The position numbers and the translations under genes are program-made. From positions 1-52,397 of IMG/VR virus record IMGVR_UViG_3300030406_002796: a stretch of 52,397 nt of DNA; one strand, given 5' to 3'. Below, piece by piece: positions 1-51,353 of this stretch. The notes under the pieces were generated by a model that worked only from the letters and a program-made list of their open reading frames with translations, searched no databases and was not told the DNA's origin. Source of the DNA: a virus (Duplodnaviria > Caudoviricetes). How positions within the stretch are numbered: position 1 is the stretch's first letter; each line of letters begins with the position of its first letter.

Positions 1-531
1 TTCGTAGCCTAGCTCTAAACTATGTTCATGGAACTGTTTAGCTTCTTTCTCGCTACTAACTAATTGTGTAAATACACCATTAATACAATCACGTATTGGC
101 AGATTTTGCACAATAAAGTTCCTACGCTGTTCATAGGTTTTAGTGGTATCTATTATATCATAACAATGAAAGTGTACATTCTGGGCTGATATATATCTGT
201 CCTCATCAGTCGGTTTTGTTTTTCTGACCATAGATATTATAGACTCAAAATCGTCTTTAAAATCATGATTATACAACTCACCGTCGAGTACAACATTTGG
301 GTGTTTGTGAAAAAAAGGTGTCAACTCTTCTAATATATGGTTGATATTTTTCCACTCTTTGTCGTTACGTGAATACGCAACAACTTTACCCTTATCCATA
401 AAATTAGGACCGGTCTTTTCGTACTGTATTAAGCAACGCACGCCGTCAAGCTTTGGTTGCATATACACTACACTTTTGTAGTCTATTGGTTTGTCACTTA
501 CTGGGTAAGCTAACATTGGTTTATATTTCAT
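1..531 (-). CDS. ATP-dependent DNA ligase (3' end runs off window)
   Basis: Manual translation MKYKPMLAYPV...MQPKLDGVRCL (motif I KxDG), VVLDGELYNH (motif III), FHCYDII (IIIa), LGYE at window edge (IV). Not in the ORF track because it is truncated. Alternative ATG at 537. Confidence 0.93.
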   Translation of the reverse strand, partial: MKYKPMLAYPVSDKPIDYKSVVYMQPKLDGVRCLIQYEKTGPNFMDKGKVVAYSRNDKEWKNINHILEELTPFFHKHPNVVLDGELYNHDFKDDFESIISMVRKTKPTDEDRYISAQNVHFHCYDIIDTTKTYEQRRNFIVQNLPIRDCINGVFTQLVSSEKEAKQFHEHSLELGYE

Positions 532-808
532 CTTCATCTTCAAAATTCATTAAGTTTGGGTCAATCGGTAGACCTAATCTATCGCTTAACTCCATAATTC
601 GTATTTTCATTATAGCACATTTTTCGTATTCTTCGCGATCTAAGTAAAGATTTTGAAGGGTGACACAGCGTGCTAACTCACCTATTTGATGGTCTTTTAT
701 GTTAGTGGTAGACCAGTCTGGACCACTTGTTTCTTTTGCTAAGTTTACTAACTCTTCAGCAATAAACTTAGCTAATCGTTTTAAATTTTCCTCAGGTATA
801 TTATCCAT
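521..808 (-). CDS. hypothetical protein with UVR (UvrB/UvrC-type) coiled-coil motif
   Basis: ORF track; LDREEYEKCAIMKIRIMEL resembles the UVR consensus E.YE.AA..RD.I. Confidence 0.6.
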   Translation of the reverse strand: MDNIPEENLKRLAKFIAEELVNLAKETSGPDWSTTNIKDHQIGELARCVTLQNLYLDREEYEKCAIMKIRIMELSDRLGLPIDPNLMNFEDEDEI

Positions 809-1221
809 TAGTCATCGTATTTTGTTTGCAATTGTTTTGGTTTACCTACAAAGATGCACTCATCACCATCAAATATGCTAATCCATATGTCTTTATGGTA
901 ATCGCCCCACACATAATACTCATAATCTATCCAACTATGAGGCCTTTCTGGGTCTTCTATATATACATTACCTGGTTCATCTTTTAGCTCTGCTATGATA
1001 GAAGCTGCCATACATGCGATACCATTAAAACAATTTTTATCGTCTCTATTTAGACCATTAGTTATTTTTTTATCTTCTAGATAATTAGCTAATGTCACAC
1101 CTAAATATTCAGGGTAACCATCATAGTGATGATAAATACTTACCAGTTTTTTATCTGGTTTTTCACTAAACGATACTCCTTCTTCACGCTTAGCTATGCT
1201 TATTGTTGCTCTTGTTCCCAT
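808..1221 (-). CDS. conserved phage hypothetical protein
   Basis: MGTRA...IYHHYDGYPEYLG...DYEYYV pattern typical of a widespread phage early-gene family; coupled to downstream gene. Confidence 0.7.
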   Translation of the reverse strand: MGTRATISIAKREEGVSFSEKPDKKLVSIYHHYDGYPEYLGVTLANYLEDKKITNGLNRDDKNCFNGIACMAASIIAELKDEPGNVYIEDPERPHSWIDYEYYVWGDYHKDIWISIFDGDECIFVGKPKQLQTKYDD

Positions 1222-1222
1222 A

Positions 1223-1324
1223 TTATTTAATTTTAGTTTGTATAGCTAGTATTGTAAATATAGCTAAGTAAAAAAATGCGACAGTAGTTATACTTAAACC
1301 ACCGTCTGTTATAAATTTTTCCAT
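1223..1324 (-). CDS. 33-aa single-TM hypothetical protein
   Basis: Manual translation MEKFITDGGLSITTVAFFYLAIFTILAIQTKIK; fills the gap between neighbours exactly. Confidence 0.55.
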   Translation of the reverse strand: MEKFITDGGLSITTVAFFYLAIFTILAIQTKIK

Positions 1325-1325
1325 A

Positions 1326-1589
1326 CTACCCTGTTATTGAAACTGTATAATCTTCATCATCAGAAATTAAAAATCTATCACCATACAGTAAATCCATATG
1401 ACTAATAGATAATAAATTAGTATGTGAAAAGTTAATAAGCTTACTAACATCATGTACTTTCAAGTCAGACCAAAAGCTTGCTGCTTTTAAGCTGTCAATT
1501 AAAGCCATGGTTGTAGTAGGATATTTTTTTAAGTCTTCCTGAATACCATCGCGTATTTCGGGTTTTAGTTTTTCGTATAAATTTTTCAT
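1326..1589 (-). CDS. hypothetical protein
   Basis: ORF track; directly downstream of an early promoter-motif copy. Confidence 0.7.
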   Translation of the reverse strand: MKNLYEKLKPEIRDGIQEDLKKYPTTTMALIDSLKAASFWSDLKVHDVSKLINFSHTNLLSISHMDLLYGDRFLISDDEDYTVSITG

Positions 1590-1594
1590 ATTAT

Positions 1595-1625
1595 TATTAT
1601 CTTACTTTATTTGTATTTAATTTGT
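1595..1625 (-). promoter_or_regulatory. putative phage early promoter, copy 1
   Basis: ACAAATTAAATAC-N10-AGATAATA, 6 nt upstream of ATG 1589. Confidence 0.7.
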
Positions 1626-1632
1626 ACAAAGA

Positions 1633-1791
1633 ACGAGGCCGGGCAGGTGTGGTTCGTATAAACATCTGTCAAGTGGTTTCGTTGACATCACTAATCGGCC
1701 CAATTCACCACTATCGTTTATATCTGCTTTATCCTGCCGTTTGCGTGGAGGACTCGAATACCTCATACACGCGTTACCACGCTCACCTCGT
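1633..1791 (-). ncRNA. putative multi-stem structured ncRNA
   Basis: Nested complementary stems ACGAGG/CCTCGT, GCGTG/CACGC, GAGG/CCTC, GGCAGG/CCTGCC, TATAAAC/GTTTATA, TGTCAA/TTGACA in a GC-rich intergenic stretch. Confidence 0.55.
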
Positions 1792-1799
1792 ATTTATAG

Positions 1800-1881
1800 T
1801 AGCACGGGTAGGAATCGAACCTACCAACTCGTCAGTTAACAACACTAGCAATTACTTGCATCATCATGCCCAGTCCGTGCT
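1800..1881 (-). ncRNA. tRNA-like RNA with non-canonical D and anticodon arms
   Basis: Acceptor AGCACGG/CCGTGCT, T-arm GTAGG-TTCGATT-CCTAC, variable-arm hairpin TAACT-GACG-AGTTG; weak anticodon stem. Confidence 0.6.
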
Positions 1882-1884
1882 ATT

Positions 1885-1956
1885 GCAGCAAGAAGGTTAG
1901 ATGGTCGTGTACTTAATCCGATTGTCGGCGTATTGACCTACACTCCCTTCGCCTGC
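1885..1956 (-). ncRNA. putative pseudoknotted ncRNA
   Basis: Outer GCAG/CTGC and GAAGG/CCTTC, inner GTGTA/TACAC, crossing GGTC/GACC, hairpin CCGA-CAA-TCGG. Confidence 0.45.
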
Positions 1957-1960
1957 GTTT

Positions 1961-2134
1961 TTAGTTTCCGTATCTATCTCTCAGCGCAGAATAGTTTTGC
2001 ATAATGCTAACTATTTTATCTTTACTTAATCCTGAATAGTCGGAAACTACAGAAGTATTAAACATGTTAGTTACTCCTGATTCTCTTACATCTTCGTAAG
2101 CTTGGAAATCATCTTGTGTTATTTCTACTGTCAT
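1961..2134 (-). CDS. 57-aa hypothetical protein (DUF5049-like)
   Basis: Manual translation MTVEITQDDFQAYEDVRESGVTNMFNT...; the RESGxTNMF motif recalls DUF5049. Confidence 0.65.
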   Translation of the reverse strand: MTVEITQDDFQAYEDVRESGVTNMFNTSVVSDYSGLSKDKIVSIMQNYSALRDRYGN

Positions 2135-2140
2135 ATTATA

Positions 2141-2356
2141 TTATTTTAACATAGTACCGTAGCCGCGTCTGCGAGTTTTTTTCAGTATGAACTCAGCATC
2201 TTCGCTAGACATGATTTGAATCTCGTTACCAGTCTTGTGATTTGTTATTGGTATACAACCATAACGCATTACTGACGAGCAGTTAACGCAAACCTTATAG
2301 CCAAGATCGAGGCGGCCTTGTGGTACATTATTATTACATTTTAAACATTGTTTCAT
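2141..2356 (-). CDS. C4 zinc-finger protein (DksA/TraR-like finger)
   Basis: CLKC...PQGRLDLGYKVCVNCS. Confidence 0.65.
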   Translation of the reverse strand: MKQCLKCNNNVPQGRLDLGYKVCVNCSSVMRYGCIPITNHKTGNEIQIMSSEDAEFILKKTRRRGYGTMLK

Positions 2357-2363
2357 ACGTATA

Positions 2364-2394
2364 TATTATCTTGTAGTGATTGTATTTTGTTTGT
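2364..2394 (-). promoter_or_regulatory. putative phage early promoter, copy 2
   Basis: ACAAACAAAATAC-N10-AGATAATA upstream of ATG 2356. Confidence 0.7.
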
Positions 2395-2395
2395 A

Positions 2396-2623
2396 TTAAA
2401 ATATATCATCTAAATCGATAGTATAGCTATGATCGCTACTATTTTCACTAGCGGCTACTATAGCGGCTTGCAAACCGTCTAAGTAACCTGCTTTGTAAAG
2501 AGCTGTTTCGTGAGGCGTAATTACTTTATTATTTATTAATAAAAATTCTTTAGCATCACTATAAGCTTCTGGACTCATCTCATCCATTGCTTCTTGTTCT
2601 AAATCTTTTAATTTTTCTATCAT
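2396..2623 (-). CDS. hypothetical protein
   Basis: ORF track, acidic, in tightly packed minus-strand operon. Confidence 0.65.
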   Translation of the reverse strand: MIEKLKDLEQEAMDEMSPEAYSDAKEFLLINNKVITPHETALYKAGYLDGLQAAIVAASENSSDHSYTIDLDDIF

Positions 2624-2718
2624 TATTTACTTAATTTATCAATATCATTACTTATTTGCGTAGTTACGTACATACCTGCACAAAAACCTACTACAAATAC
2701 TATTATTATTTCTATCAT
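2623..2718 (-). CDS. 31-aa single-TM hypothetical protein
   Basis: Manual translation MIEIIIVFVVGFCAGMYVTTQISNDIDKLSK; TAATG overlap with next gene. Confidence 0.6.
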   Translation of the reverse strand: MIEIIIVFVVGFCAGMYVTTQISNDIDKLSK

Positions 2719-2719
2719 T

Positions 2720-3289
2720 TTAACTTAAATTATAACGGTGACCGTTGATTACTACTTTAATATCATTATTATCTATAAAACTATCACGCTCTACTGTTTC
2801 TTCAAACGGTAAATCTTGCGGTTCTGGTTTTACATTTTGCATTAAACTTACTTGATAGTCATTAATTCTATAAAAACTAGCACCAGTTTGATTTCTGTAG
2901 TAGTTTTTAAGTATATAATTACAAAGGTAAACAAAGCGATCTTCATGATTAGGTATCATTATTCGCTCTTTACCAACATATCTATTATACTTACCTGTCC
3001 AGTTACCATCAAGGTCGTAGTCTTTATAGTATTTTGGTGCAATACGAGTTCTATTTAGTTGATAGCAACAGTAGCTAGCACCTTTACTATTAACTAACAT
3101 TTTACGCACATAGCCACTTTTGTAAATAGTAAATCTGTTTACTTCTTTGTAGCCGTTAGCGTACATAGTTTTAAATGGTAACTCAAAAACTTGAGTACCT
3201 TTTTTACTCTGCCAGTCTTTAGTGACATCTTTAATACCAAGCAAGTCAAATATAGCTCTTGCTTCGTGTATATTTTTTACTTTATTCAT
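2720..3289 (-). CDS. hypothetical protein
   Basis: 189-aa ORF in operon context. Confidence 0.75.
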   Translation of the reverse strand: MNKVKNIHEARAIFDLLGIKDVTKDWQSKKGTQVFELPFKTMYANGYKEVNRFTIYKSGYVRKMLVNSKGASYCCYQLNRTRIAPKYYKDYDLDGNWTGKYNRYVGKERIMIPNHEDRFVYLCNYILKNYYRNQTGASFYRINDYQVSLMQNVKPEPQDLPFEETVERDSFIDNNDIKVVINGHRYNLS

Positions 3290-3290
3290 A

Positions 3291-3476
3291 TTAATTATCT
3301 TTTATTATTCTATCGCTTTCATGGCACATCCACTGACAGCAACTTAAACTATGACCTTTGCCTGTTATAAAATCTTCAAAAGCTTCATTATCAGGTAACC
3401 ACGCGTTACCTATTTTGTATTGAAATACTTCACCGACTTCAAAATCTAGCACCGTTATATAGTTAACTCTTTTCAT
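3291..3476 (-). CDS. hypothetical protein
   Basis: ORF track; ITVLDF..G.V.QY...GH.L....WM pattern. Confidence 0.6.
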   Translation of the reverse strand: MKRVNYITVLDFEVGEVFQYKIGNAWLPDNEAFEDFITGKGHSLSCCQWMCHESDRIIKDN

Positions 3477-3478
3477 TT

Positions 3479-3682
3479 TTAATATTTTAATATTTGTGGT
3501 AAATATTTTTCATATAAAGCATTAGATTCATCACTTAAACCAGCGTCATCTAGCGCTTCCATTACTTTACTTATAGTTTTCCAAGCGTTTTGACCACGCT
3601 CGTATACACTATAATCATCACTATATTGGTAAAACCAGTCGTGATTTTGCAGTAATTCTTCTAATGTTTTTAATTTACTCAT
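3479..3682 (-). CDS. hypothetical protein (HDWxYxYSDD family)
   Basis: Start reassigned to ATG 3682 (MSKLKTLEELLQNHDWFYQYSDD) because the GTG extension overlaps the 3675-3812 ORF. Confidence 0.7.
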   Translation of the reverse strand: MSKLKTLEELLQNHDWFYQYSDDYSVYERGQNAWKTISKVMEALDDAGLSDESNALYEKYLPQILKY

Positions 3683-3812
3683 AATTTTTATGTTTTTTCT
3701 TACGACTATAAGTCTTTTTACTTTTATGAACACGCTTGAAACGAGAGAATTGCCAAAAAGGATTACCTTTTCGATACTCTTTTGACTCTATTTTAATAGT
3801 TATTCTCTTCAT
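3675..3812 (-). CDS. 45-aa basic protein, ArfA/BrfA-like ribosome rescue factor candidate
   Basis: Manual translation MKRITIKIESKEYRKGNPFWQFSRFKRVHKSKKTYSRKKKHKNYE; ATGA overlap with the upstream ORF. Confidence 0.55.
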   Translation of the reverse strand: MKRITIKIESKEYRKGNPFWQFSRFKRVHKSKKTYSRKKKHKNYE

Positions 3813-3934
3813 TTCTTGCGCTTTTTATCGCAACACTTGTAATCTAATACATCTTGTCTAGTTATCTTGCCTTCCATTTGCTTGATAATTAGACTAGTGT
3901 AGTTAGCTTTACAGTATTTGCATTCATATCTCAT
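3809..3934 (-). CDS. 41-aa Cys-containing hypothetical protein
   Basis: Manual translation MRYECKYCKANYTS...DYKCCDKKRKK; 6 nt downstream of promoter motif. Confidence 0.55.
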   Translation of the reverse strand: MRYECKYCKANYTSLIIKQMEGKITRQDVLDYKCCDKKRKK

Positions 3935-3939
3935 AATTA

Positions 3940-3970
3940 TATTATCTTATAGTGTTCGTATTTTATTTGT
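3940..3970 (-). promoter_or_regulatory. putative phage early promoter, copy 3
   Basis: ACAAATAAAATAC-N10-AGATAATA. Confidence 0.7.
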
Positions 3971-3974
3971 ATAG

Positions 3975-4048
3975 TGATCGAGGTAGGAATCGAACCTACA
4001 CTCTACAGCTTAGAAGGCTGTTGCTTTATCCAGTTAAGCTACTCGACC
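3975..4048 (-). tRNA. tRNA-Arg(TCT)
   Basis: Full cloverleaf: acceptor GGTCGAG/CTCGATC, D-arm GCTT..AAGC with TGG, anticodon arm ACAGC-CTTCTAA-GCTGT, T-arm GTAGG-TTCGATT-CCTAC; no encoded CCA (CTA follows). AGA is the dominant Arg codon in the phage genes. Confidence 0.95.
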
Positions 4049-4059
4049 GAAGTTTAATA

Positions 4060-4203
4060 TTATTTCTTTTCTTCTACTTCTTCATCTTCTTCAAGAAAAT
4101 CTAAGTGATTTTCCTTCTTTTCATAAAGTGTAGGACCATAGTAGTCTTGATACATTATGTAAATCCAGTGAAGAATTAGTAATGTTATTATTAAATCGCA
4201 CAT
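4060..4203 (-). CDS. 47-aa membrane protein with acidic tail
   Basis: Manual translation MCDLIITLLILHWIYIMYQDYYGP...EEDEEVEEKK. Confidence 0.55.
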   Translation of the reverse strand: MCDLIITLLILHWIYIMYQDYYGPTLYEKKENHLDFLEEDEEVEEKK

Positions 4204-4204
4204 A

Positions 4205-4492
4205 TTATTGTAGTGTTATACCGTTATTACTTGCTAATTTATCTAAAAACATGTCAATATCTGCTACATTTTTAGCGTCTATTAGCTCCTTTATTTCGCT
4301 GCAATACTCATATTCTTCAGTATTTTCAAAGTATTCTAACATTTCTTGTAGTTCTTCAGTGCGAAAGTCAAATGGATTACCATAAAACATTGCGCCTGCT
4401 CCGCTATATTGAGTTAAAACATCTTCAACACTCATCCTATTAGTGAGTACTCCAAACGAGTTTCTCATTAAATTATCTATATCTATTTCCAT
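4205..4492 (-). CDS. hypothetical protein with UVR-like motif
   Basis: YFENTEEYEYCSEIKELID. Confidence 0.6.
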   Translation of the reverse strand: MEIDIDNLMRNSFGVLTNRMSVEDVLTQYSGAGAMFYGNPFDFRTEELQEMLEYFENTEEYEYCSEIKELIDAKNVADIDMFLDKLASNNGITLQ

Positions 4493-4815
4493 AATTTACT
4501 TAATTTTTTAGTCATTTCTTCAGTAGTAAGAGTAGATTTAGCAGTACTAACTAAGTGTATTACTTTAGCCACTTCGTCTGTAGTAGTGTAACCACGAACT
4601 ACATCATACTCTAACATCACCATTTTACCATCGCGAGTACTCCAAACAGCTATTTCTGCATTATTAGAATCCCAGCAATCAGTGTTTTTAGGTGAATCAT
4701 AGTTATCTTCTCTTCGCTCACAGTAGTTACCTGGACCGAATTGTACACTCACTTGCCAACTATTGTTGAACTTTAAGTGAAAACCTTTATGATTTGTTAT
4801 ACTAAATCTACTCAT
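4483..4815 (-). CDS. conserved phage hypothetical protein
   Basis: KGFHLKFNNSWQVSVQFGPGNYCE...AEIAVW pattern of a common phage family. Confidence 0.7.
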   Translation of the reverse strand: MSRFSITNHKGFHLKFNNSWQVSVQFGPGNYCERREDNYDSPKNTDCWDSNNAEIAVWSTRDGKMVMLEYDVVRGYTTTDEVAKVIHLVSTAKSTLTTEEMTKKLSKLWK

Positions 4816-4924
4816 CTTTATACCAATATTCGTTTAAAATTTCTATTTGTTGCTCAAAATTGCAAGTGTCAAAGCCGAACTCGCCAAATCTTTCTTGCGC
4901 TAGTTTATTTATTTTTTCTATCAT
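4808..4924 (-). CDS. 38-aa hypothetical protein
   Basis: Manual translation MIEKIIKLAQERFGEFGFDTCNFEQQIEILNEYWYKDE. Confidence 0.55.
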   Translation of the reverse strand: MIEKINKLAQERFGEFGFDTCNFEQQIEILNEYWYKDE

Positions 4925-4938
4925 AACTTAATTTTTAG

Positions 4939-4979
4939 TGGTAGTGGTGAGAATCGAACTCACTTAAACCATTACTACC
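4939..4979 (-). ncRNA. tRNA minihelix-like element (acceptor stem + T-arm only)
   Basis: GGTAGT-AATGGTTTAA-GTGAG-TTCGATT-CTCAC-C-ACTACC-A followed by CTA. Confidence 0.55.
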
Positions 4980-5027
4980 TTTTACTCATTCGTATTATTT
5001 TTAGTTGCTAAACAAGTGGAACTACAA

Positions 5028-5159
5028 CTATATACTCATATTTACGCCACTAGTAGCGACGTTGTAAATTAGCATTCCGAGAACGTATACTATACTTGCA
5101 CACATACTTACAATTACTGAAGTAATTATAACTTCCTCGTGAGTGAATTTACGCTTCAT
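5028..5159 (-). CDS. 43-aa single-TM hypothetical protein
   Basis: Manual translation MKRKFTHEEVIITSVIVSMCASIVYVLGMLIYNVATSGVNMSI; TAATG overlap. Confidence 0.55.
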   Translation of the reverse strand: MKRKFTHEEVIITSVIVSMCASIVYVLGMLIYNVATSGVNMSI

Positions 5160-5392
5160 TAGGTAATATCTTCATTTCTTACCATCATTGGTATGTTATT
5201 ACTCGCAGTATAAGACTTGTACTTTAACCAACATGGCATTGCTTCAAGTTTATCTTTCATAATAGCAAACACTTTATCGTGATTGTAAGTGGCAGTTTTA
5301 CCATTTTTGAACTCTACGTTTATAGTCTTGTTCTGACCTACTAGTGACTGCCTCACTACAAATCTTTTAGACTTAATTACATTATTTTCCAT
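5159..5392 (-). CDS. hypothetical early protein, paralog of 5822-6043
   Basis: Shared KRFV.R.SL.G...YNHD.V...MPC..KYKSYT. Confidence 0.8.
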   Translation of the reverse strand: MENNVIKSKRFVVRQSLVGQNKTINVEFKNGKTATYNHDKVFAIMKDKLEAMPCWLKYKSYTASNNIPMMVRNEDIT

Positions 5393-5414
5393 AACTATTT
5401 AATTTATTTATTAT

Positions 5415-5445
5415 TATTATCTTTACTATTTTGTATTTAGTTTGC
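5415..5445 (-). promoter_or_regulatory. putative phage early promoter, copy 4
   Basis: GCAAACTAAATAC-N10-AGATAATA. Confidence 0.7.
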
Positions 5446-5447
5446 AA

Positions 5448-5615
5448 TTATATTACTGTACAAAAATCAGCATTCACTTCTATATCATCTCTTCGATGTA
5501 AATCATCTTTTATTCTTGATAATTCTATACATGTTTTAGTGTATAATTCTAACTTTGTATATTCATGATTAGTGAATCCAAGTATATAATTTACTAAGTA
5601 ATTTTTATAATCCAT
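5448..5615 (-). CDS. 55-aa hypothetical protein
   Basis: Manual translation MDYKNYLVNYILGFTNHEYTKLELY...; lies between two promoter copies and shares the ATAGTTATGG start context with 5392. Confidence 0.55.
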   Translation of the reverse strand: MDYKNYLVNYILGFTNHEYTKLELYTKTCIELSRIKDDLHRRDDIEVNADFCTVI

Positions 5616-5639
5616 AACTATTTATTTTATTTACATTAT

Positions 5640-5670
5640 TATTATCTTTGCTCTTTCGTATTTAGTTTGT
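5640..5670 (-). promoter_or_regulatory. putative phage early promoter, copy 5
   Basis: ACAAACTAAATAC-N10-AGATAATA. Confidence 0.7.
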
Positions 5671-5760
5671 AAAAGTATATTATTTGTTTATACATTTATT
5701 TTCGTTAGCGCATACTCCGCCACTTCTCTCATTGTATAAATGAAAGTTATAATTATAGTA

Positions 5761-5803
5761 TGACATTAGCAATATAAGTACTTAGAGTAACTAGCTATTG
5801 TCA
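5761..5803. repeat. intergenic inverted repeat
   Basis: TGACATTAGC-N23-GCTATTGTCA, 9/10 complementary. Confidence 0.45.
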
Positions 5804-5821
5804 CAGTATTTAGTAGAAATA

Positions 5822-6043
5822 TTACTCAGTAATTTTCATATTTCTACAAAATGCTGGCATACAATTAGTATTAGTATACGATTTATACTTTTGAAAACAA
5901 GGCATACTATCAAATCTTAGTTTGTGAAATTTATACACTTCATCGTGATTATACTTTACTACTTCACCTTTCTTGTTAGTGAACTCTACTACTACGTCTT
6001 TACCGATTAAAGACTTTCTTATTACAAATCTTTTTAATTTCAT
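5822..6043 (-). CDS. hypothetical early protein, paralog of 5159-5392
   Basis: See paralog; first gene of the minus-strand block. Confidence 0.8.
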   Translation of the reverse strand: MKLKRFVIRKSLIGKDVVVEFTNKKGEVVKYNHDEVYKFHKLRFDSMPCFQKYKSYTNTNCMPAFCRNMKITE

Positions 6044-7592: not shown

Positions 7593-7952
7593 ATGGCATT
7601 TAAACTAGGTAGCAGAAAAAATACACCAACACATATGGGAGGAGTAAGAGTTGTTACCACGCCATTAGATAAAGGTGCTATAGCGGAAGCTAGAAATGAT
7701 GGTAGTATAGCCATCAGCCCTGATGTAGATCAGTCCAATAAAAAACAAATGAATCGCATCATTAAGCATGAAATGAAACACATGCGAGATATGAAAGAAG
7801 GTAGAGCCGATTACGGTGATAACTGGATGATGTGGGACGGTAATATATACATCAGAAAAAATGGAGTGATAGATGGTCCTAACGGTAGTTGGCCAGAAGG
7901 CCATCCAAATCACCCATGGGAACAAGAGGCAATGCAAGCCGAAAATGAATAA
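7593..7952 (+). CDS. zincin-like metalloprotease (HExxH)
   Basis: IIKHEMKHM with downstream PWEQEA third-ligand-type motif; N-terminal MAFKL. Confidence 0.7.
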   Translation: MAFKLGSRKNTPTHMGGVRVVTTPLDKGAIAEARNDGSIAISPDVDQSNKKQMNRIIKHEMKHMRDMKEGRADYGDNWMMWDGNIYIRKNGVIDGPNGSWPEGHPNHPWEQEAMQAENE

Positions 7953-7976
7953 ATTAATCGATTAAATATTTAAAAA

Positions 7977-9503
7977 ATGGCATTTAAAATGGGACGCCCA
8001 GATATGGGTAAAGGAACTGGAATGAGTTCACAAAAAATGATGAGGCCAGGTTCTTCACAAAAGATGAAGCCTAGCCCACAAAGATTAGTAAGTAAGGCTG
8101 GAAAAGCAGCTGGTAGAGTAAGTAAAAGAATGACAAGAGCTGCTAGAGAAGCGGCAATGAACGCTGCTAGATCAGCAACGGGCGCAAGCGCTGGTAAAGT
8201 AATGGGTAGAGCAATGGGTGCAGGTGCTGGTAACACACTAAGCAAAGGTGTATCACCGCAAAAGCTTAGTGCAGTTGGAAAAGTTGTAAGAAAAGGAACT
8301 AGCAATATTATAAAAAAAGTAGGCACAAAAGGGAGAGTTTCTAAGGCTGTAAGAGCAGCGGGCAAAGCAATGAAATCAGGAGAAGCAAGAGCAATTGGTG
8401 GAGTAAAAATGGGTGGTAGAAGTTTTGGAGAAACAAAGTCACCACAAAAGATGGTTGGGGTTGCAAAAGCCGCAATGAGAGGAACTGGCAAGGTCGTAAG
8501 AAAAACAGTAGGAACATCTGTACGAAAATCTGTTCAAGCAGATCCAACAAAACTTAGAGCATCACGTGCTGCCGAGAAAGCAAGAAGAATGTCAGGTAAA
8601 GGAAAGGCAGTTGGTAAAAGCGCTGATTCACCACAAAAAATTGCGGGAGTCGTAGCTAGAGTTGGAAGTAGAGCATTGCCAGCTATTGCAAAAGGTGGTA
8701 AAAATCTTATTAAAAAAGGTAAAAATTTAATCAAGGGCAATAAAGGTAAAGCCGCTGGAACAGCAGCATTTACACCGGACATGTTTAAAAAAGCAGGTGG
8801 ATCTAAAGCTGGAAATATATTAAAGAATGTAATTAAGTATGGAACTCCTGCTGGAATAGCTTATAGTGCTATAAGTTCTCTCATGGGTGGTGGTAAAGGA
8901 AAAGGTTCGGAAGATGCTAGCAAAGGAGCTGGAGATGCTGCTAAAAAAGCTGCTGATAACGCAAAATACAGAGCAGCTAAGAAAAACAATCCTAAATTAG
9001 ATGCACTTATTAAAGAGCGAAAGAATCATAAAAAAGGATCTGACAAGTATAATGCTATACAAAATCAGATTAATAAAGCTTATGGATCTGGTAAAAGACA
9101 TGGTGTTACTGAAACTAAAGGAACAAAAGGTAGAGATACTGTAAAAAGAAAAAGAGTTCCTGGTTTATCAGATGAAGCTACGCTTATAAGAAGAAGAAAA
9201 GTAGGTGGAAACAAAATGATAAAGAGAGAAAAGAATTTAGAAACTGGAACTTCTAGAGAGGTTAAACTTAAACCAGGTTCTAAGAAAATGAAGATGAGAG
9301 ACTATGATGCTGCTGGAAACTTAACTAAGAAAACGAAAGTTAAAGGAGGAGGAGATAAAGTTAAGGTTACTAAAAGAGGCGCTGACACTGTAACTAAAAT
9401 TAAAATAAACAAAAGAACTGGACAGACTAGAACTAGAACTAGAAAGAAAAGATTTGAAGGTTTAGGTAATTTGATAACAGGTAAAAGAGGAGGTAGAAAG
9501 TAA
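7977..9503 (+). CDS. very basic Lys/Arg/Gly/Ala-rich protein with SPQK repeats (putative internal virion protein)
   Basis: 508 aa; MAFKM start; S[SP]Q[KR] x6. Confidence 0.7.
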   Translation: MAFKMGRPDMGKGTGMSSQKMMRPGSSQKMKPSPQRLVSKAGKAAGRVSKRMTRAAREAAMNAARSATGASAGKVMGRAMGAGAGNTLSKGVSPQKLSAVGKVVRKGTSNIIKKVGTKGRVSKAVRAAGKAMKSGEARAIGGVKMGGRSFGETKSPQKMVGVAKAAMRGTGKVVRKTVGTSVRKSVQADPTKLRASRAAEKARRMSGKGKAVGKSADSPQKIAGVVARVGSRALPAIAKGGKNLIKKGKNLIKGNKGKAAGTAAFTPDMFKKAGGSKAGNILKNVIKYGTPAGIAYSAISSLMGGGKGKGSEDASKGAGDAAKKAADNAKYRAAKKNNPKLDALIKERKNHKKGSDKYNAIQNQINKAYGSGKRHGVTETKGTKGRDTVKRKRVPGLSDEATLIRRRKVGGNKMIKREKNLETGTSREVKLKPGSKKMKMRDYDAAGNLTKKTKVKGGGDKVKVTKRGADTVTKIKINKRTGQTRTRTRKKRFEGLGNLITGKRGGRK

Positions 9504-10081
9504 TGGGTTTTAAATTAGCAGGAATGACATTTGGTGAGGGTACTGGTTCTGAGAATCAAGTACCCATTACCAATGCAAATCAAAGAAGAATAGATCGTAA
9601 AAGAAGAAAGGCTGAAAAGCTTAGAGAAAGAGCTGAAGAGCTTAGACAAAAAGGTGGTAGCGATAGAAGACTACAAAGATTAGAAAGAAGAGCATCGTCT
9701 AAAGAAATAAGAGCTGGTGTAAAAGAAGATATGGCTGATAACTTAGAAGCTGGTAAAGACAAGAAAGCTGATCTAGTAGATCCAAGAGGAGGTCAAACAC
9801 CAGGTTTAGAACATAGAGTTGAAAGACCTAAAATGTACGATGAAACAGGTGACTATATAGAAGGAACAGGTAAAAAAGATTCTGAACCAGTAGAGCCTAA
9901 AAAAGAAGAGCCGATAAACTACGACAACATGAGTTTTAGTGAAGCATACAGAGCTGCAAGAAACAAAAATAAAGAAGCTGGTATAGCTCACTACGGAGAT
10001 GAAAGAGGTTATTTTACTTATAAAGGTAAAAAATATAATACTGAATCTAGAGAAGAAAAAGCTAAGAGAACAGGAAAGTAG
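9503..10081 (+). CDS. charged hypothetical protein (MGFK start)
   Basis: C-terminal SFSEAYRAAR...FTYKGKKYNT module; TAATG overlap. Confidence 0.7.
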   Translation: MGFKLAGMTFGEGTGSENQVPITNANQRRIDRKRRKAEKLRERAEELRQKGGSDRRLQRLERRASSKEIRAGVKEDMADNLEAGKDKKADLVDPRGGQTPGLEHRVERPKMYDETGDYIEGTGKKDSEPVEPKKEEPINYDNMSFSEAYRAARNKNKEAGIAHYGDERGYFTYKGKKYNTESREEKAKRTGK

Positions 10082-10128: not shown

Positions 10129-11694
10129 ATGGAATATAACTTACCAAGCGATTTGGTTAAAAATCTAGACTTTGGTAGTGACGCTAAAAAAAGAGTTATT
10201 ACTGGAGTTAATAAATTAGCCCAAGCCGTTAAATCAACATTAGGTGCATCAGGAAAATGCGTTATATATGAAGATGGTAGAGGCAAACCGGTCATAACAA
10301 AAGATGGGGTAACCGTTGCAGAAAGCGTAGTCTTATATGACCCGGTAGAAAACATGGGTGCTACTTTAATCAAAGAAGCTGCCAGAAATACAGTTAAGGA
10401 TGCTGGTGATGGCACAACAACTGCTACAGTATTAGCTGAAGCAATAATCAAACAAATAGATACTGCGGTCGCAGAAGGTCTAACAATCAGAGAAATTAAA
10501 GACGGGGTTAACAGTACATTAAAAGATGTTATTGATTACTTAGATAGTGTAGCTATTGAAGTAAAAGATGATATGCTAAAAGCTGTTAGTGCTATATCAT
10601 GTAACAACGATAAGAAGCTAGGAGCTATTATAGCTGAAGCTTATGATAAGGTTGGTAAAAATGGTGTAGTGCTAATGGAAGAAAGCGAATCAGAAGATAC
10701 ATACGTTGATATTGTAGACGGTGTTAAAATAGATTGTGCTATAACTTCTCCACATTTTGTTACTAATACAGAAAAACAAACTTGTGAATTAGATAATCCT
10801 TTAGTACTTATATGTTCTTCTGAAATACCTAATGTGCGTAAGATACAAAATATACTAGAGTATGTTATTAAAAACAATAGAGCTTTATTAATAGTAGCGC
10901 CAGTGGCACAACAAGTTAAAGCCGCTTTACTTATGAATAAAGTAAAAGGTACTATTAAAGTTAATGTTATAGACTTACCAGGCTTTGGTCCTACTAAAAA
11001 AGACGCTACAGAAGATTTAGCTATATTAACTGGAGCTACAGTAATGAATGAAGAACTTGGTGATGATTTAGATTTAATGAAGCCAGAGCATTTAGGTGAA
11101 GCTGACTTCGCTGTAACTGATGATAAAAATACTGTGCTAACACTAGAAGGTATGAATCAAGATATTGAAGATAGGATAGATGAGTTAAATAAACATTTAG
11201 CTGAAGAGCAAAATAGTTTTATTAAAAAGAAACTAGAAGACAGGTTAGTTATGTTATCTGGTAGTGTAGGTATAATAAGGGTAGGCGCTAACTCTAAGGT
11301 TGAGTTAAAAGAAAAGAAAGACAGAGTTGAAGATGCTATATACGCTACTAAAGCAGCATTGCAAGAAGGTATTGTACCAGGAGGTGGCGTAGCATTATTA
11401 AACGCTAGCCAAAAAATTTCGACCAGCAGAGCTGGTAAGGTATTGCTTAATGCTTTATCCTCACCGTTTAATACTATATTAGATAATGCTGGTTTAGAAC
11501 AAGTAGCACCAAGACCTATTAAAGGTATAGGTGTAGATGTAGTAACCAGCAAAGAAGTTAACATGGTTGAGTCTGGTATTATTGATCCAGTGCTTGTAAC
11601 TAAGTCTGCACTTAAAAATGCTGTAAGTGTAGCTTTAACTATTATGTCAGCAGACTGTGTAATATCAAATATAAGAGTAAATGAAAGCAGTTAA
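10129..11694 (+). CDS. groEL: chaperonin GroEL (phage-encoded)
   Basis: ITKDGVTVA, AGDGTTTATVLA, KEKKDRVEDA, GIVPGGG, GIIDP..VTKSAL.NAVSVA. Confidence 0.98.
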   Translation: MEYNLPSDLVKNLDFGSDAKKRVITGVNKLAQAVKSTLGASGKCVIYEDGRGKPVITKDGVTVAESVVLYDPVENMGATLIKEAARNTVKDAGDGTTTATVLAEAIIKQIDTAVAEGLTIREIKDGVNSTLKDVIDYLDSVAIEVKDDMLKAVSAISCNNDKKLGAIIAEAYDKVGKNGVVLMEESESEDTYVDIVDGVKIDCAITSPHFVTNTEKQTCELDNPLVLICSSEIPNVRKIQNILEYVIKNNRALLIVAPVAQQVKAALLMNKVKGTIKVNVIDLPGFGPTKKDATEDLAILTGATVMNEELGDDLDLMKPEHLGEADFAVTDDKNTVLTLEGMNQDIEDRIDELNKHLAEEQNSFIKKKLEDRLVMLSGSVGIIRVGANSKVELKEKKDRVEDAIYATKAALQEGIVPGGGVALLNASQKISTSRAGKVLLNALSSPFNTILDNAGLEQVAPRPIKGIGVDVVTSKEVNMVESGIIDPVLVTKSALKNAVSVALTIMSADCVISNIRVNESS

Positions 11695-11938
11695 CGATTA
11701 TGTAATAGTTGATATAATAAAAGAAGGGCCAAAGAAAGTCGGAGGCTTTATATTAACAGATGAAACAGATGAAACAAATAGATATAAAAAAGCTAATATC
11801 ATATCTGTTGGGAATATGGTGGAAGTGGTTAAAGCTGGGGATAGTATATACTATGATGCTATTGCTGGTCATGATATTAGTTATAATGATAGTATGTACA
11901 GGGTAATACGTGCTAGGGATATAGTTATAGTAGAATAA
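11681..11938 (+). CDS. groES: co-chaperonin GroES
   Basis: MKAVNDYVIV...GGFIL...IISVG...VKAGDSIYY...VIRARDI; overlaps groEL end. Confidence 0.9.
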   Translation: MKAVNDYVIVDIIKEGPKKVGGFILTDETDETNRYKKANIISVGNMVEVVKAGDSIYYDAIAGHDISYNDSMYRVIRARDIVIVE

Positions 11939-12828: not shown

Positions 12829-13269
12829 ATGCGATTAACTAGTCACGATTTACGTGATTTACAAATCCTTAAGTATTACAGGCTCGTTAGAAAATGGGCC
12901 TGTAAGACTTACGGGTTAACAGATGCTGATCTTGAATTACTAATTTATTTAGATTGTAAAGGAAGATTTACGCGTCAAGAATTTATCGACGGTACTTACA
13001 CAATGAGTTGGGATAAGAACCGTTGGGAAAAATTAAGGAGGAATGGTTGGATAGAAACGTGGAGACACAGAAATAGAACAACCATCAAATACTCTGTATT
13101 CAAAACCTCCTTTAAGTGTTCACACTTAATAAGTAGAATATATCGTATACTTTTAGGGGAAGAAGATATACCTACTTCAGAAAAGAGTGTGTTTTTTACT
13201 AACCAATCATACACCGATAAGGTCATGAATAAGTCTATCGATGATATGATAAAAGATAATAAACGATGA
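12829..13269 (+). CDS. winged-helix (MarR-like) DNA-binding protein
   Basis: YGLTDADLELLIYLDCKGRFTRQEF...LRRNGWIE resembles MarR/wHTH. Confidence 0.55.
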   Translation: MRLTSHDLRDLQILKYYRLVRKWACKTYGLTDADLELLIYLDCKGRFTRQEFIDGTYTMSWDKNRWEKLRRNGWIETWRHRNRTTIKYSVFKTSFKCSHLISRIYRILLGEEDIPTSEKSVFFTNQSYTDKVMNKSIDDMIKDNKR

Positions 13270-13691
13270 TAGGAAAAATTGCAAATGGCTTATTCGGCAA
13301 GATAGTAGACAATGCGGAAGGAATACTTGACAAGGTTATTACGACAGACAAAGAAAGAGATGAGGCTAAGCTCGCTCTTAGAAGAGTTTTACTCGAAGCC
13401 GAAGCTGAAGCTTTCGCCAAAGAAGTTGAAGACAGAAAGAGCGCTAGGGATATGTATAAAGACGATGCGTTCATTCAAAAAGTACTTGCGACGTTATTTA
13501 CGGCAGCGTACTTTGGATTAAGCTTTATGATGTTTAGATACTTCGTAGTGGGTGATATACAAATGGGTGAGTTTGAAATTAGTTTCATCTCAACTATATT
13601 TGGTGCTATGAGTGCTAAAGTTAATACGGTAGTCGATTTCTTTTTCGGCGGATCGTCTAAAAAGAATCAAGAACAAAATAAAAATAAATAA
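13266..13691 (+). CDS. holin-like membrane protein (3TM holin type)
   Basis: LDKVITTDKER..AKL, DRKSARDM, two hydrophobic helices, DFFFGGS. Confidence 0.65.
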   Translation: MIGKIANGLFGKIVDNAEGILDKVITTDKERDEAKLALRRVLLEAEAEAFAKEVEDRKSARDMYKDDAFIQKVLATLFTAAYFGLSFMMFRYFVVGDIQMGEFEISFISTIFGAMSAKVNTVVDFFFGGSSKKNQEQNKNK

Positions 13692-14962: not shown

Positions 14963-15176
14963 TATCATCAGGAAAATTACCATAGGTAAAGACTATAAAA
15001 ATGATGCCATGCATTATGCTGTTGGTCAAGAAGTCTATGGTGGTCATAAAATTTGTGATATAATAGAAGAAGAAGATAAGTACTCTATTTATATTAGAAA
15101 AGACGATATAGTTATACCTTGGAAAGATTTTAACAAGAATATGGCTATATCAGTTGAGTATAACTTAGAATATTAA
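14952..15176 (+). CDS. conserved hypothetical protein
   Basis: IRKITIGKDYKNDAMHYAVGQEVYGGH; start moved to ATG 14952. Confidence 0.7.
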   Translation: MKNNIIRKITIGKDYKNDAMHYAVGQEVYGGHKICDIIEEEDKYSIYIRKDDIVIPWKDFNKNMAISVEYNLEY

Positions 15177-15745
15177 TGAATGCTTATAAAGATTTTATTG
15201 TCTCTCCTATTGGTGAGCGCTATGATAATACTAAGCAAGTTGATGACAAAAGATTAATACTTAATACAGAAGTATCAAATCATCAATTTGTAAATAGATT
15301 AGCAAAAGTTATCGCTACTCCATTATTATTTCAATCACCCATTAACGTGGGTGATGAGGTAATAGTTCATCATAATGTTTTTAGAAGATGGTATGATGTT
15401 AAAGGTAGAGAAAAAAATAGTAGATCATATTGGAAAGAAGATAAATATATAATATCAGAAGATCAAATATATTTATACAATAATAAAGCTATGCCTGGCT
15501 ATAGTTTTATTAAACCACTAAAATCTAATGATAAATTTACTAATGACAAAGAAAGACCTTTAATAGGTGTAGTTAAATACTCTGATGGTAGTTTTAATAT
15601 AAATGATTTAGTAGGATTTGCGCCTAGTATGGAGTATGAGTTTATTATAAACGGAGAGAGATTATATAGAGTTATGAATAAATTTATTACAATTAAATAT
15701 GAATATAAAGGAAACGAAGAAGAATATAATCCAAGCTGGGCATAA
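15176..15745 (+). CDS. tandem GroES-like protein
   Basis: Two GroES-like halves: FIVSP...LILNT...AKVIATP...INVGDEVIV and FIKP...GVVKY...NDLVGF...EFIINGERLYRV. Confidence 0.6.
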   Translation: MNAYKDFIVSPIGERYDNTKQVDDKRLILNTEVSNHQFVNRLAKVIATPLLFQSPINVGDEVIVHHNVFRRWYDVKGREKNSRSYWKEDKYIISEDQIYLYNNKAMPGYSFIKPLKSNDKFTNDKERPLIGVVKYSDGSFNINDLVGFAPSMEYEFIINGERLYRVMNKFITIKYEYKGNEEEYNPSWA

Positions 15746-15974
15746 AGCGGTTGAAGAATTAATCAAGGTAGCTAAAGAAGCTATTGTTGATTCTGGAGAT
15801 GATGTTTCCGCTGATAGATTAAAAAATGCAGCTGCTACAAAAAAGTTAGCTATATTTGATGCATTTGAAATATTAAACAGAATCCATGAAGAAGAGGGTT
15901 TATTAGAAGGTAAACCTATAGAAGAAAAGAAAGAGAATAAATTCAAAGGGTTTGCAGAAGGTAGGTCTAAATAA
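15699..15974 (+). CDS. putative terminase small subunit
   Basis: Helical 91-aa protein immediately upstream of terL, TAATG overlap. Confidence 0.45.
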   Translation: MNIKETKKNIIQAGHKAVEELIKVAKEAIVDSGDDVSADRLKNAAATKKLAIFDAFEILNRIHEEEGLLEGKPIEEKKENKFKGFAEGRSK

Positions 15975-16402
15975 TGTATAACCAAAACTTATTTAAGGTT
16001 GTAGAACCTATAAAAATAAATACCATTAAAAGACTTAACAAGTCTAAAAAATGGAAGTATGGTTATGATAAAGAAAATGATATAGTTATTATATCTAAAA
16101 CCGGTATGATCGGCGATATCATAGAAATACAAGGTTTACAAATAGCTTTACCTAAACAACCTAAAGAAATATATAGTTGTAGTAAAATAAAGTCAGAGCA
16201 AAAGTGGAAACAATTTCCAGCTAACTCAGCTTTTAAAAGAATTAAAACTGTATTTGATTGGCAAACATATCCAGATGATTTTAAACAAAGTCATTATGAA
16301 TATATAGACGAAGAGTTTAAAAGAAGAGAAGAAGGTTTTTGGTTTATGAATAATGGCAAGCCAACCTACAGGCACACACTATATGTATTTACAATGGAGT
16401 AA
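15974..16402 (+). CDS. terL: terminase large subunit, N-terminal fragment (frameshifted)
   Basis: ...YIDEEFKRREEGFWFMNNGKPTY continues logically into TGTHYMYLQW in another frame. Confidence 0.7.
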   Translation: MYNQNLFKVVEPIKINTIKRLNKSKKWKYGYDKENDIVIISKTGMIGDIIEIQGLQIALPKQPKEIYSCSKIKSEQKWKQFPANSAFKRIKTVFDWQTYPDDFKQSHYEYIDEEFKRREEGFWFMNNGKPTYRHTLYVFTME

Positions 16403-49653: not shown

Positions 49654-49655
49654 AT

Positions 49656-50297: not shown

Positions 50298-50307
50298 CAA
50301 TTGTAAT

Positions 50308-51351: not shown

Positions 51352-51353
51352 TT

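Follow-up and report, generated by a model that had tools for sequence, protein, structure and literature searches.

The core-protein precursors pVII and pre-Mu of adenovirus are cut by the virion protease adenain, and the prohead protease of bacteriophage T4 removes a capsid targeting sequence (CTS) from internal proteins once these have been loaded. The CTS is all that these otherwise diverse T4 proteins are described as sharing, and it loads them into the scaffolding core (PMC3012670). Here we report on the virus record IMGVR_UViG_3300030406_002796, analysed over its whole length of 52,397 bp (hereafter, the window), and on a lysine-rich protein of 508 amino acids (aa) that it encodes at 7977-9503 on the plus strand. 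We found this protein to be part of a conserved three-part system, comprising a short N-terminal peptide tag, a small zincin that itself bears the tag, and tagged, mostly basic proteins, of which a family defined by a conserved core module is the most constant partner.

The arrangement resembles the T4 CTS system (IPI-III, Alt; gp21) in two ways: a short N-terminal peptide alone is common to otherwise unrelated, mostly small and basic phage proteins, and the gene for a candidate phage protease is linked to those of the tagged proteins. It differs from T4 in that the sequence of the tag is unrelated, and in that the candidate protease is not a serine prohead protease but a 119-aa zincin with an HExxH motif. 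The zincin gene, moreover, is not beside portal, scaffold, or capsid genes. Because the T4 CTS offers the closest known logic, we take the tag as an address and a tetrapeptide, SPxK, as a likely processing site, in which case the 508-aa protein would be a multiply cleavable precursor. The likeness to adenovirus would be that highly basic precursors are cut at a short consensus motif by a virus protease into DNA-associated peptides; adenovirus belongs to a eukaryotic virus lineage and uses a cysteine protease and another motif, and the analogy is one of mechanism only.

Results

One N-terminal tag on otherwise unrelated proteins

The first 20 residues of the 508-aa protein (MAFKMG...GKGTGM-SSQK; 7977-8036, plus strand) form a tag that is common to four open reading frames (ORFs) of the genome. 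A start of the form M[AG]FK[LM] occurs in exactly four ORFs, those beginning at 7593, 7977, 9503, and 52046, and the DNA pattern of the tag matched the window four times against 0.05 matches expected, a number reached in 0 of 100 shuffles. Several otherwise unrelated proteins of the same phage thus have one short N-terminal peptide in common.

Across 52 tagged ORFs of related loci, variation was seen in codon 2 (GCA, GCT, GCG, GGA, or GGT), codon 5 (ATG, TTA, CTA, ATT, or CTT), and codon 6. Because these three codons vary synonymously or conservatively, we conclude that selection acts on the tag as a peptide. We rejected a nucleotide box acting at the level of translation as the explanation of the tag, as Ala and Gly codons, Leu, Met, and Ile codons, and Lys and Gly codons vary at these places.

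A scan of IMG/VR for one variant of the tag returned at least 138 stretches. The 182 sources scanned contained 233 distinct ORFs with a tag start, of which 62 encode HExxH proteins shorter than 200 aa and 171 encode other proteins, mostly unrelated to one another; this sample is biased to the MAFKMKG variant, because MAFKMKG was the pattern searched. Five other complete or near-complete genomes carry between one and five tagged genes each, always on one strand. When 119 complete tagged ORFs outside the zincin and core families were compared with Pfam, 115 had no hit of any kind. The four hits were one weak match to Eco57I and three to DUF6321 (L046:1501-1809, L092:1065-1520, and L104:1002-1520), the only Pfam family above its cut-off among these proteins. 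Within the library searched, full-text queries for the tag and leader strings returned nothing relevant.

Many tags are followed closely by a short proline motif. The pattern [SD]P.[KRNQ] is present in 86 of the 171 non-zincin tagged ORFs, with its first copy beginning at residue 8-22 in 58 of the 86. Within the first 35 aa, SP.[KR] had a frequency of 7.3 per 1000 residues (41 in 5,597 residues), and further on one of 1.36 (27 in 19,810), against 0.57 expected from composition. A typical tag consists, in this order, of MAFKMKG, a stretch of 5-12 residues, and G/N-SP-[FALMIV]-K-[KQ], and the 508-aa protein fits this plan with SSQK at aa 17-20. Matches to the tag motif in the ORF set were N-terminal in 53 cases and apparently internal in 12, most of the latter only a few residues from a start that was probably mis-called; to judge from these sequences, true internal copies of the tag are rare in the set.

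The tag-bearing HExxH protein is zincin-like

The gene just upstream (7593-7952, plus strand) encodes the 119-aa protein, which starts MAFKLG and carries HEMKH at aa 59-63. Eleven residues (M1, F3, K4, G37, H59, E60, H63, Y74, R88, G103, and E110) are invariant in 19 of 19 homologues. The AlphaFold2 (AF2) model, with a predicted local distance difference test score (pLDDT) of 78.5, has a small sheet, the HExxH helix at residues 50-68, further strands, and a C-terminal helix. The invariant E110, a candidate third metal ligand, falls on a modelled helix, 108-118, downstream of the HExxH helix.

Fold comparisons gave weak matches, nearly all of them zincins. Foldseek returned proabylysin at E 0.13 and selecase at E 0.31, and VIA-align returned PprI (Z 5.2), the catalytic domain of ERAP1 (4.7), abylysin (4.7), and the VgrG2b effector (4.4), followed by selecase (4.2), BepA (4.0), and Spartan (4.0). 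The best fold matches, the minigluzincins (proabylysin, 4jiu; selecase, 4qhf) and the M78-type ImmA/IrrE/PprI proteins (8sln), are minimal zincins of similar size, ~100-120 aa, and have the same succession of a beta-sheet, the HExxH helix, and, further on, a helix that carries an invariant Glu. The phage protein differs from them in that the scores are low (Z 4.2-5.2; Foldseek E 0.13) and in that the invariant tag-like N-terminus, Y74, and R88 are specific to its own family. No Pfam model reached its cut-off for the protein, the nearest being Peptidase_M91 (19.6 vs 25 bits), SprT-like (14.6 vs 25.6), and M90 (13.6 vs 26.2), and the ESM Atlas returned only unnamed viral clusters. On the strength of the model we regard the HExxH protein as zincin-like and as a presumptive protease.

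The family is large. At least 1540 zincin-family proteins (clusters) match at E<=1e-3, many of them from marine surveys and none with a Pfam domain or an informative name, and the tag starts 116 of 120 zincin homologues among the matches listed. Against phage records, the zincin of locus L038 found just weak matches (E 0.007-0.5), to hypothetical or ImmA/IrrE-type genes of unrelated phages. In five of the seven zincin forms that are extended at the C-terminus, KSP[NT]K stands 5-9 residues past the last motif of the catalytic domain, compared with 0 of 113 short forms; these five long forms belong to two or three related groups and so do not count as independent. With its enrichment both at tag residues 8-22 and at zincin-domain junctions, SPxK appears to behave like a boundary motif.

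The zincin gene is linked to the core-module gene

To describe linkage we used 44 sources, namely 43 loci found with the family profile plus the window; many of the loci are cut by contig ends. A core-module ORF was present in 42 of them, and the zincin as well in 28. In 20 of the 44 the zincin gene starts 195-430 nt upstream of the core gene, a distance from which the two must be adjacent. An adjacent HExxH protease gene had been proposed in a preliminary description of this stretch of DNA, and the HEMKH motif, the zincin-like fold, and the retained linkage all agree with that proposal. We conclude that the linkage of zincin and core genes is a conserved arrangement and not a coincidence.

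We also picked the ten largest viral records that the tag had found. Nine encode the zincin, among them seven of the seven with a completeness of 90% or more. In two related phages with complete genomes, Panino and MW202828, the zincin and tag starts are both absent.

SPQK motifs in the 508-aa protein

The 508-aa protein, whose homologues are P0002-P0021 (alignments A1 and A3), consists to 26% of Lys and Arg (K+R). It has SSQK at aa 17 and 26 and SPQR at aa 33, which form a cluster at 8025-8084, and SPQK at aa 93, 155, and 218, so that the SPQ[KR] sites are spaced by 60, 62, and 63 aa. Each is followed directly by L, L, M, or I, and the segments between sites hold 12-17 K+R and 1-3 D+E. Both the positions of these motifs and the hydrophobic, near acid-free stretches after them had been noted in the preliminary description, and our motif scan and composition analysis bear them out. 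Over the 18 residues after the four sites the mean helical hydrophobic moment was 0.60 vs 0.36 over the first 300 positions, a value matched by 31 of 10,000 random sets of four positions.

The motif is concentrated in this protein. In a six-frame count over the window, S[SP]Q[KR] was seen six times in the 508-aa ORF, once in the ORF at 49656-50297, and once antisense at 31844, and the looser SP.[KR] occurs four times in these 508 aa vs four times in the 36 remaining ORFs of the plus strand (14,318 aa). Four SPQ[KR] sites were reached in 0 of 20,000 composition-preserving shuffles of the protein, and in its closest relatives, at an overall identity of 37-42%, three [SA]P[TQ]K-hydrophobic sites are kept at similar spacing (L002, at aa 105, 163, and 226; also P0002). 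The shuffles and this conservation together exclude a chance origin of the motif.

A period of 60-63 aa had been claimed for the motif. The spacings are indeed regular, but a single pair of units is homologous: the unit at aa 87-148, which holds the SPQK at aa 93-96 (8253-8264, plus strand; followed by LSAVGKVVRKG...), and the unit at aa 149-211 (z 6.6, a score reached by 0 of 500 shuffles). The other five pairs are not significantly similar (z 0.1-1.9). We looked for a DNA tandem repeat of ~186 nt and found only short rows with a period of 6-21, and therefore rejected a tandem duplication of that length at the DNA level.

Two of the sites lie in a conserved setting. An internal tag-like copy, GGVKMGGRSFGETK-SPQK, spans aa 141-158 (8397-8450, plus strand), and the pattern GVKMGGK.F...SPQK, or the same with APTK, is kept in L002, P0002, and P0003-P0009. 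The SPQK at aa 218-221 is joined to a conserved helix, IAGVVARVGSRALPAIAKGG (together 8628-8696, plus strand), in which S218, P219, Q220, K221, G224, R228, V229, G230, S231, L234, and P235 are invariant in four of four close relatives. This motif-plus-helix element recurs in the ORF at 49656-50297 and in most members of the family.

A basic half predicted to be disordered and a folded domain

We modelled the 508-aa protein with AF2 from a 16-sequence alignment. The pLDDT is below 50 for 272 residues, nearly all within aa 1-311, and 88-97 for aa ~320-495, where helices at 315-368 precede ten beta-strands at 378-490. According to the model, then, the protein has two unlike halves, a basic N-terminal one in which residues 1-310 are predicted to be disordered and a C-terminal one that is confidently folded. 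Every SPQ[KR] site falls in the part with pLDDT below 50 and none in the folded domain; since this region is predicted to be disordered, the sites should be accessible. The preliminary description had taken the feature to end at 8900 and to be a string of peptides. That end is arbitrary, because the ORF continues to 9503, and in place of a string of equal units there is a C-terminal conserved folded domain of 190 aa, which the description had missed along with the shared tag.

The helices of the folded half carry the conserved core module (aa 328-380; 8958-9116, plus strand; alignment A4; pLDDT 88-97), with the consensus YxxAKKxxPxLxxxIxERxxHKKGSxxYNxxQNxINKAYG. It is followed by a K/R/T-rich antiparallel sheet of ten strands (aa 378-490; 9108-9446, plus strand; pLDDT 92-97). 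A fold search with residues 376-499 matched part of Tom40 (Z 10.0; root-mean-square deviation (rmsd) 4.1; 109 residues aligned), OspA (Z 9.8; rmsd 3.9; 111 aligned), a phi812 baseplate protein (Z 9.4), and the G-box of CPAP (Z 9.3). As modelled, the sheet resembles just generic beta-meanders and single-layer sheets, a likeness that names no family.

At E<=1e-3, 21 proteins match the 508-aa protein, the best beyond its own cluster at 7.7e-46. Common to these relatives are an N-terminal MAFKMKG..GKGTGM, low-complexity repeats of SAMDMK or SPxK, usually one SPQK with a hydrophobic helix, and, fourth, a strongly conserved module (YAEAKKxDPNLDKYIAERxKHKKGSxEYNAAQNKINKAYG) that is followed by a basic tail. 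The 508-aa protein has both features of the family, the MAFK tag and the core module in the form YxxAKKxDPxLxxYIxxRxxxxKGSxEYNxxQNKINxAYG (2.3e-18 with the core profile). That profile matches 531 cluster representatives at E<=1e-3 and 300 at E<=1e-10, with lengths of 84-618 aa among the matches listed. In the 147 representatives that we examined, 46 have a tag start and the median K+R is 25%, and a Pfam search of all 147 gave a single hit, to DUF5824. Many members are low-complexity proteins with 25-38% K+R and without a hydrophobic stretch.

These sequence comparisons place the 508-aa protein in an unnamed family of lysine-rich proteins from uncultured marine phages. No family was found for it in Pfam or PHROGs, a profile of alignment A1 had 0 matches among PDB sequences at E<=10, and the ESM Atlas was uninformative, its best score being 0.75 and its own model having a pLDDT of 0.51. 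We rejected the idea of an integral membrane protein: no core-family protein examined attains a 19-residue Kyte-Doolittle mean of 1.6, the maxima being 0.94 for the 508-aa protein and 1.09 for its paralogue. Two core-module proteins of other loci (L010:3794-4888 and L012:391-1650) end in an SDARLKENI domain that matches phrog_6121, 'virion structural protein' (3.6e-14), and that looks like the intramolecular chaperone domain of tail fibres.

The paralogue (49656-50297, plus strand; 213 aa) has the core module at its C-terminus and no MAFK tag. Its SSPQK, at aa 76-80 as had been claimed, is followed by VVPAIMAGL..., the motif and hydrophobic helix together occupying aa 76-99.

Possible processing of the 508-aa protein

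The explanation that we tentatively favour is that the tag addresses the 508-aa protein, a basic one, and that the zincin processes it at SPxK, the protein most likely being cargo inside the virion. The preliminary description had proposed a precursor cut at SPQK by the adjacent protease, with which our explanation agrees in part. The targeting, the cutting, the place of action, and the DNA binding we infer as follows. The protein would have three parts: a short address tag at the N-terminus, MAFKM(K)G...G.GTG, whose end in many proteins is SPxK; a strongly basic and disordered half, in which each [SA]P[QT]K would cap a cationic amphipathic helix and one is preceded by the internal copy of the tag; and the folded C-terminal domain, predicted to consist of a three-helix core module and the ten-strand basic sheet. 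The tag would gather the 508-aa protein, two other tagged proteins, and the tag-bearing 119-aa zincin at the same place, which would most likely be the interior of the capsid during assembly, as with the capsid targeting sequence borne by the T4 internal proteins. There, the zincin would cut off the tag at S[SP]QK or close by, and perhaps cleave the exposed internal SPQK sites too. What results, cationic peptides of ~60 residues and a basic folded domain, would stay with the packaged DNA. To judge from its distribution, the multi-site precursor would be a local elaboration, confined to the closest relatives of this phage.

Several observations count against such addressing and processing. The zincin does not belong to a known type of prohead protease, and its gene (at 7593) is separated by ~10 kb from the portal gene downstream (at 18200). 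SP.[KRQN] starts at residues 7-35 in only 51 of 160 dereplicated tags, and the tags read SP-hydrophobic-K-[KQ], whereas the 508-aa protein reads SP-Q-K-hydrophobic. Three or more SP.[KR] sites are found in just three of the 147 family representatives, which confines the multi-SPxK layout to the closest relatives. In the complete genome G002 the zincin is the sole tagged gene, so that it is not always accompanied by tagged partners. Searches of 50,697 phage records with tblastn or megablast yielded no cultured carrier, as the 508-aa protein, its C-terminal 190 aa, and the homologue P0009 were unmatched there; the same searches left the window zincin, the zincin of L018, the 192-aa tagged protein encoded at 9503, and 6 kb of the DNA unmatched. 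Gene neighbourhoods speak for lysis no less than for the capsid: in 11 of 16 annotated loci the stretch examined includes a gene that PHROGs class under 'lysis', and the paralogue comes after an endolysin-like gene. Finally, S-P is a common helix N-cap, by which the motif could be explained without any cutting.

An alternative that we think improbable is that the protein is left uncut and that the disordered lysine-rich half, along with the basic sheet, binds a polyanion such as DNA or RNA. SPQK would then be a helix N-cap or a short linear binding motif, and the zincin would have another substrate or only trim tags. In favour of this stand a composition of 17% K, 8.5% R, 15% G, and 12% A and a C-terminal domain that is both confidently folded and strongly basic. 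K+R rises to 38% within the family (L031, with 151 K+R in 401 aa), the SPxK context is unlike between tags and the 508-aa protein, and the conserved G, RVGS, and LP after SPQK-218 suggest a structured binding helix. An uncut protein sits less well with the conserved tag-like copy before SPQK-155, with SPxK at the domain junctions of long zincin forms, and with the tight linkage of its gene to a protease-like gene.

The motif itself also differs from the classical SPKK motif of DNA binding. SPKK and SPXX are minor-groove DNA-binding motifs of histone H1 and sperm histones, SPKK standing for S/T-P-basic-basic. The 508-aa protein is like them in repeating an S-P-x-K tetrapeptide within a lysine-rich disordered protein. 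It is unlike them in that the third position is Q rather than a basic residue, in the hydrophobic amphipathic helix after each motif, and in the use of S-P-x-K to close the N-terminal tag on many unrelated proteins. A histone-H1-like SPKK motif had been offered earlier as an alternative; the sites, being SPQR, SPQK, SPQK, and SPQK, lack the two basic residues and fall outside the definition.

A bolder form of the favoured explanation seems to us unlikely. In this form the MAFKMKG...SPxK leader and the tag-bearing zincin would make up an 'address and cut' system that is complete in itself, belongs to marine phages of the Flavobacteriia type, and has no relation to known prohead proteases; the 508-aa protein would be a polyprotein proper, with a cut after every [SA]P[QT]K. 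Cutting would release the leader, three cationic amphipathic peptides of ~60 residues, and the basic beta-sheet domain, and the products would act on packaged DNA or on the host envelope.

Lysis and virion genes in the neighbourhood

An action on the envelope is also the core of another explanation, which we consider quite unlikely: the 508-aa protein and its paralogue would act on the host envelope late in infection through their cationic amphipathic stretches, together with the endolysin and a holin-like protein, and the zincin would mature or time them. The gene neighbourhood speaks for this. The paralogue directly follows an endolysin-like gene (49024-49653; phrog_3000 and phrog_33083) and precedes genes for two proteins with signal peptides, and locus L026 has the core gene after an endolysin-like gene with the same phrog_3000/33083 match, in the same four-gene order as in the window at 49024-52043. 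In phages with other terminase and endolysin families, the core-module gene adjoins or is near an endolysin gene (L031 and L013, phrog_465; L021, phrog_894).

The four genes of the window cassette (49024-52043) are the endolysin-like gene, the core-module paralogue, and genes for a 357-aa and a 229-aa protein. The 357-aa protein has a signal peptide and a C-terminal ...FGFNYLIF like that of an outer-membrane beta-barrel, and the 229-aa protein is secreted, Cys-rich and then very acidic. The cassette may serve an unusual outer-membrane step of lysis.

PHROG scans covered 16 related loci, seven in a first group and nine in a second, more distant one. GroEL and GroES were present in seven of seven loci of the first group, and in six of them (L006, L018, L022, L028, L038, and L010) a phrog_3427 'holin' gene directly follows the cluster of zincin, core, and tagged genes; L036 carries this holin too. 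In the seventh, L004, the place is taken by a phrog_1544 protein like that encoded in the window at 13266-13691 (plus strand), 3.7 kb downstream of the 508-aa gene. The latter, a holin-like protein of 141 aa with two C-terminal hydrophobic helices, matches phrog_1544, lies in a gene block that is conserved in relatives, and resembles in architecture the phrog_3427 'holin' proteins that come after the zincin/core cluster there.

The high amphipathic moment after SPQK also fits a role at the envelope, for which a precedent exists in the podophage phiKT. Its disruptin, gp28, is presented (10.1101/515445) as a 56-aa cationic amphipathic peptide that disrupts the outer membrane and replaces the spanins. 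The 508-aa protein is likewise a cationic, predicted amphipathic-helical polypeptide, and its paralogue lies in a lysis cassette; the two are likened here by character, and gp28 differs, as far as that account describes it (10.1101/515445), in being a single 56-aa peptide made as such, in place of 508 aa with a folded domain and an N-terminal tag.

Other observations detract from an explanation by lysis. No lysis gene is nearby in five of the 16 loci: L004, and L016, L023, L033, and L039, whose PHROG scans gave no lysis hit; a virion structural protein is encoded next door in L016 and a major head protein in L039. Most of these loci come from a single broad group of phages that have GroEL and a common terminase family, which means that their shared synteny is not independent evidence, and the 'holin' labels of PHROGs are predictions. 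The many family members that are low-complexity, 25-38% K+R, and without a hydrophobic stretch are more typical of polyanion binders. Nor would lysis explain why one tag is common to a protease and to many unrelated small proteins. The neighbourhood points both to lysis genes and to virion genes, and much of it is synteny shared within one phage group.

Genome setting

The capsid protein of the window (21813-23345) is 39-45% identical to its counterparts in Maribacter phage Panino, the Flavobacterium 'elemo' phages, Cellulophaga phages, and an uncultured podovirus, and the same PHROG families were found for the terminase, the portal, and several virion proteins. From this we conclude that the window represents a podophage of the type that infects Flavobacteriia. 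Genes at 1-6043 are on the minus strand and everything from 6384 on is on the plus strand, the 508-aa gene sitting at the head of the plus-strand block. A 288-aa ORF and a 97-aa ORF precede the genes of the HExxH protein (7593-7952), the 508-aa protein (7977-9503), and the 192-aa protein (9503-10081), after which come GroEL and then GroES.

The spacer of 24 nt between the zincin gene and the 508-aa gene holds a palindrome, TTAATCGATTAA (7954-7965), present as a single copy in the window. Spacer sequence with TTAATCGATTAA is kept before the homologous gene in L002, L003, L008, and L011 despite diverged flanking genes. The tagged 192-aa protein (MGFKLAGMTFGEGTGS..., plus strand) has no family match in Pfam or PHROGs; its last part (aa ~140-192) ends in NMSFSEAYRAARNK...GYFTYKGKKYNTE, presumably a motif that other phage proteins have too, for which we found no family match here. 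The remaining tagged protein (MAFKMKGFSGFK..., 93 aa; 52046-52327, plus strand) has the shared N-terminus and is encoded by the last gene of the plus-strand block.

Several further genes drew our attention. The phage has its own GroEL (10129-11694; phrog_5725, 1.2e-135) and GroES (11681-11938; phrog_3188), and a second protein, of 189 aa (15176-15745), resembles GroES in its N-terminal half (phrog_13932). The large terminase subunit (phrog_6681) is divided between a 142-aa ORF (15974-16402; profile positions 12-119) and a 616-aa ORF (16353-18203; positions 120-753), which overlap by 50 nt in different frames; a frameshift, a sequencing error, or a real split could account for this, and the large terminase ORF of L022 likewise begins at profile position 125. 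Two giant ORFs lie at 38474-46507 and 26161-32814. The 2677-aa one has an ATPase-like stretch at aa ~1640-1828 (phrog_2071 and phrog_12810), and the 2217-aa one matches the virion structural protein phrog_14478.

Discussion

Two more explanations have to be set beside the tag-addressed, processed protein that we favour. The shared N-terminus could signal turnover, as an N-terminal degron read by an AAA+ protease of the host, or could be a signal of another kind directed at the host. N-terminal recognition motifs of ClpX are known, and the small-hydrophobic-K-hydrophobic pattern right after the Met resembles them. We hold this to be very improbable, because it leaves unexplained both the strict co-occurrence of the tag with a tag-bearing zincin and the enrichment of SPxK downstream of the tag. 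Scarcely credible is a secreted antimicrobial-peptide polyprotein against competing bacteria, or a chance motif of low-complexity sequence: the stretches are cationic and amphipathic, but there is no signal peptide, membrane anchor (the maximum Kyte-Doolittle mean being that given above), or tandem run of near-identical units, one unit pair of six is homologous, and half of the protein is a conserved folded domain, while chance fails on the shuffles and on the conservation of the sites. Nothing in our results speaks for the antimicrobial-peptide-like products that the preliminary description had suggested beside DNA-condensing ones.

The families concerned are large. The zincin family comprises at least 1540 clusters in public metagenomes and the core module 531 representatives, and the tag is found on many unrelated, almost all 'dark' proteins. 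None of the zincin, core, and tagged families is named, and none has a Pfam family or a cultured host-phage system. If the lysis explanation were true, it would give a clue to how Flavobacteriia phages without recognisable spanins breach the outer membrane.

If, as we tentatively favour, the tag serves as an address and SPxK as a place of cutting, this would account for a large block of genes that lack annotation in abundant marine phages, and maturation by a metalloprotease would be added to the serine and cysteine protease systems of T4, HK97, phiKZ, and adenovirus. The tag would also be a portable one, with which proteins could be loaded into such particles. What would be new is tag-directed loading and proteolytic maturation built on a metalloprotease, and the widespread pairing of tag and zincin may represent a novel means by which phages sort their own proteins and cut them.

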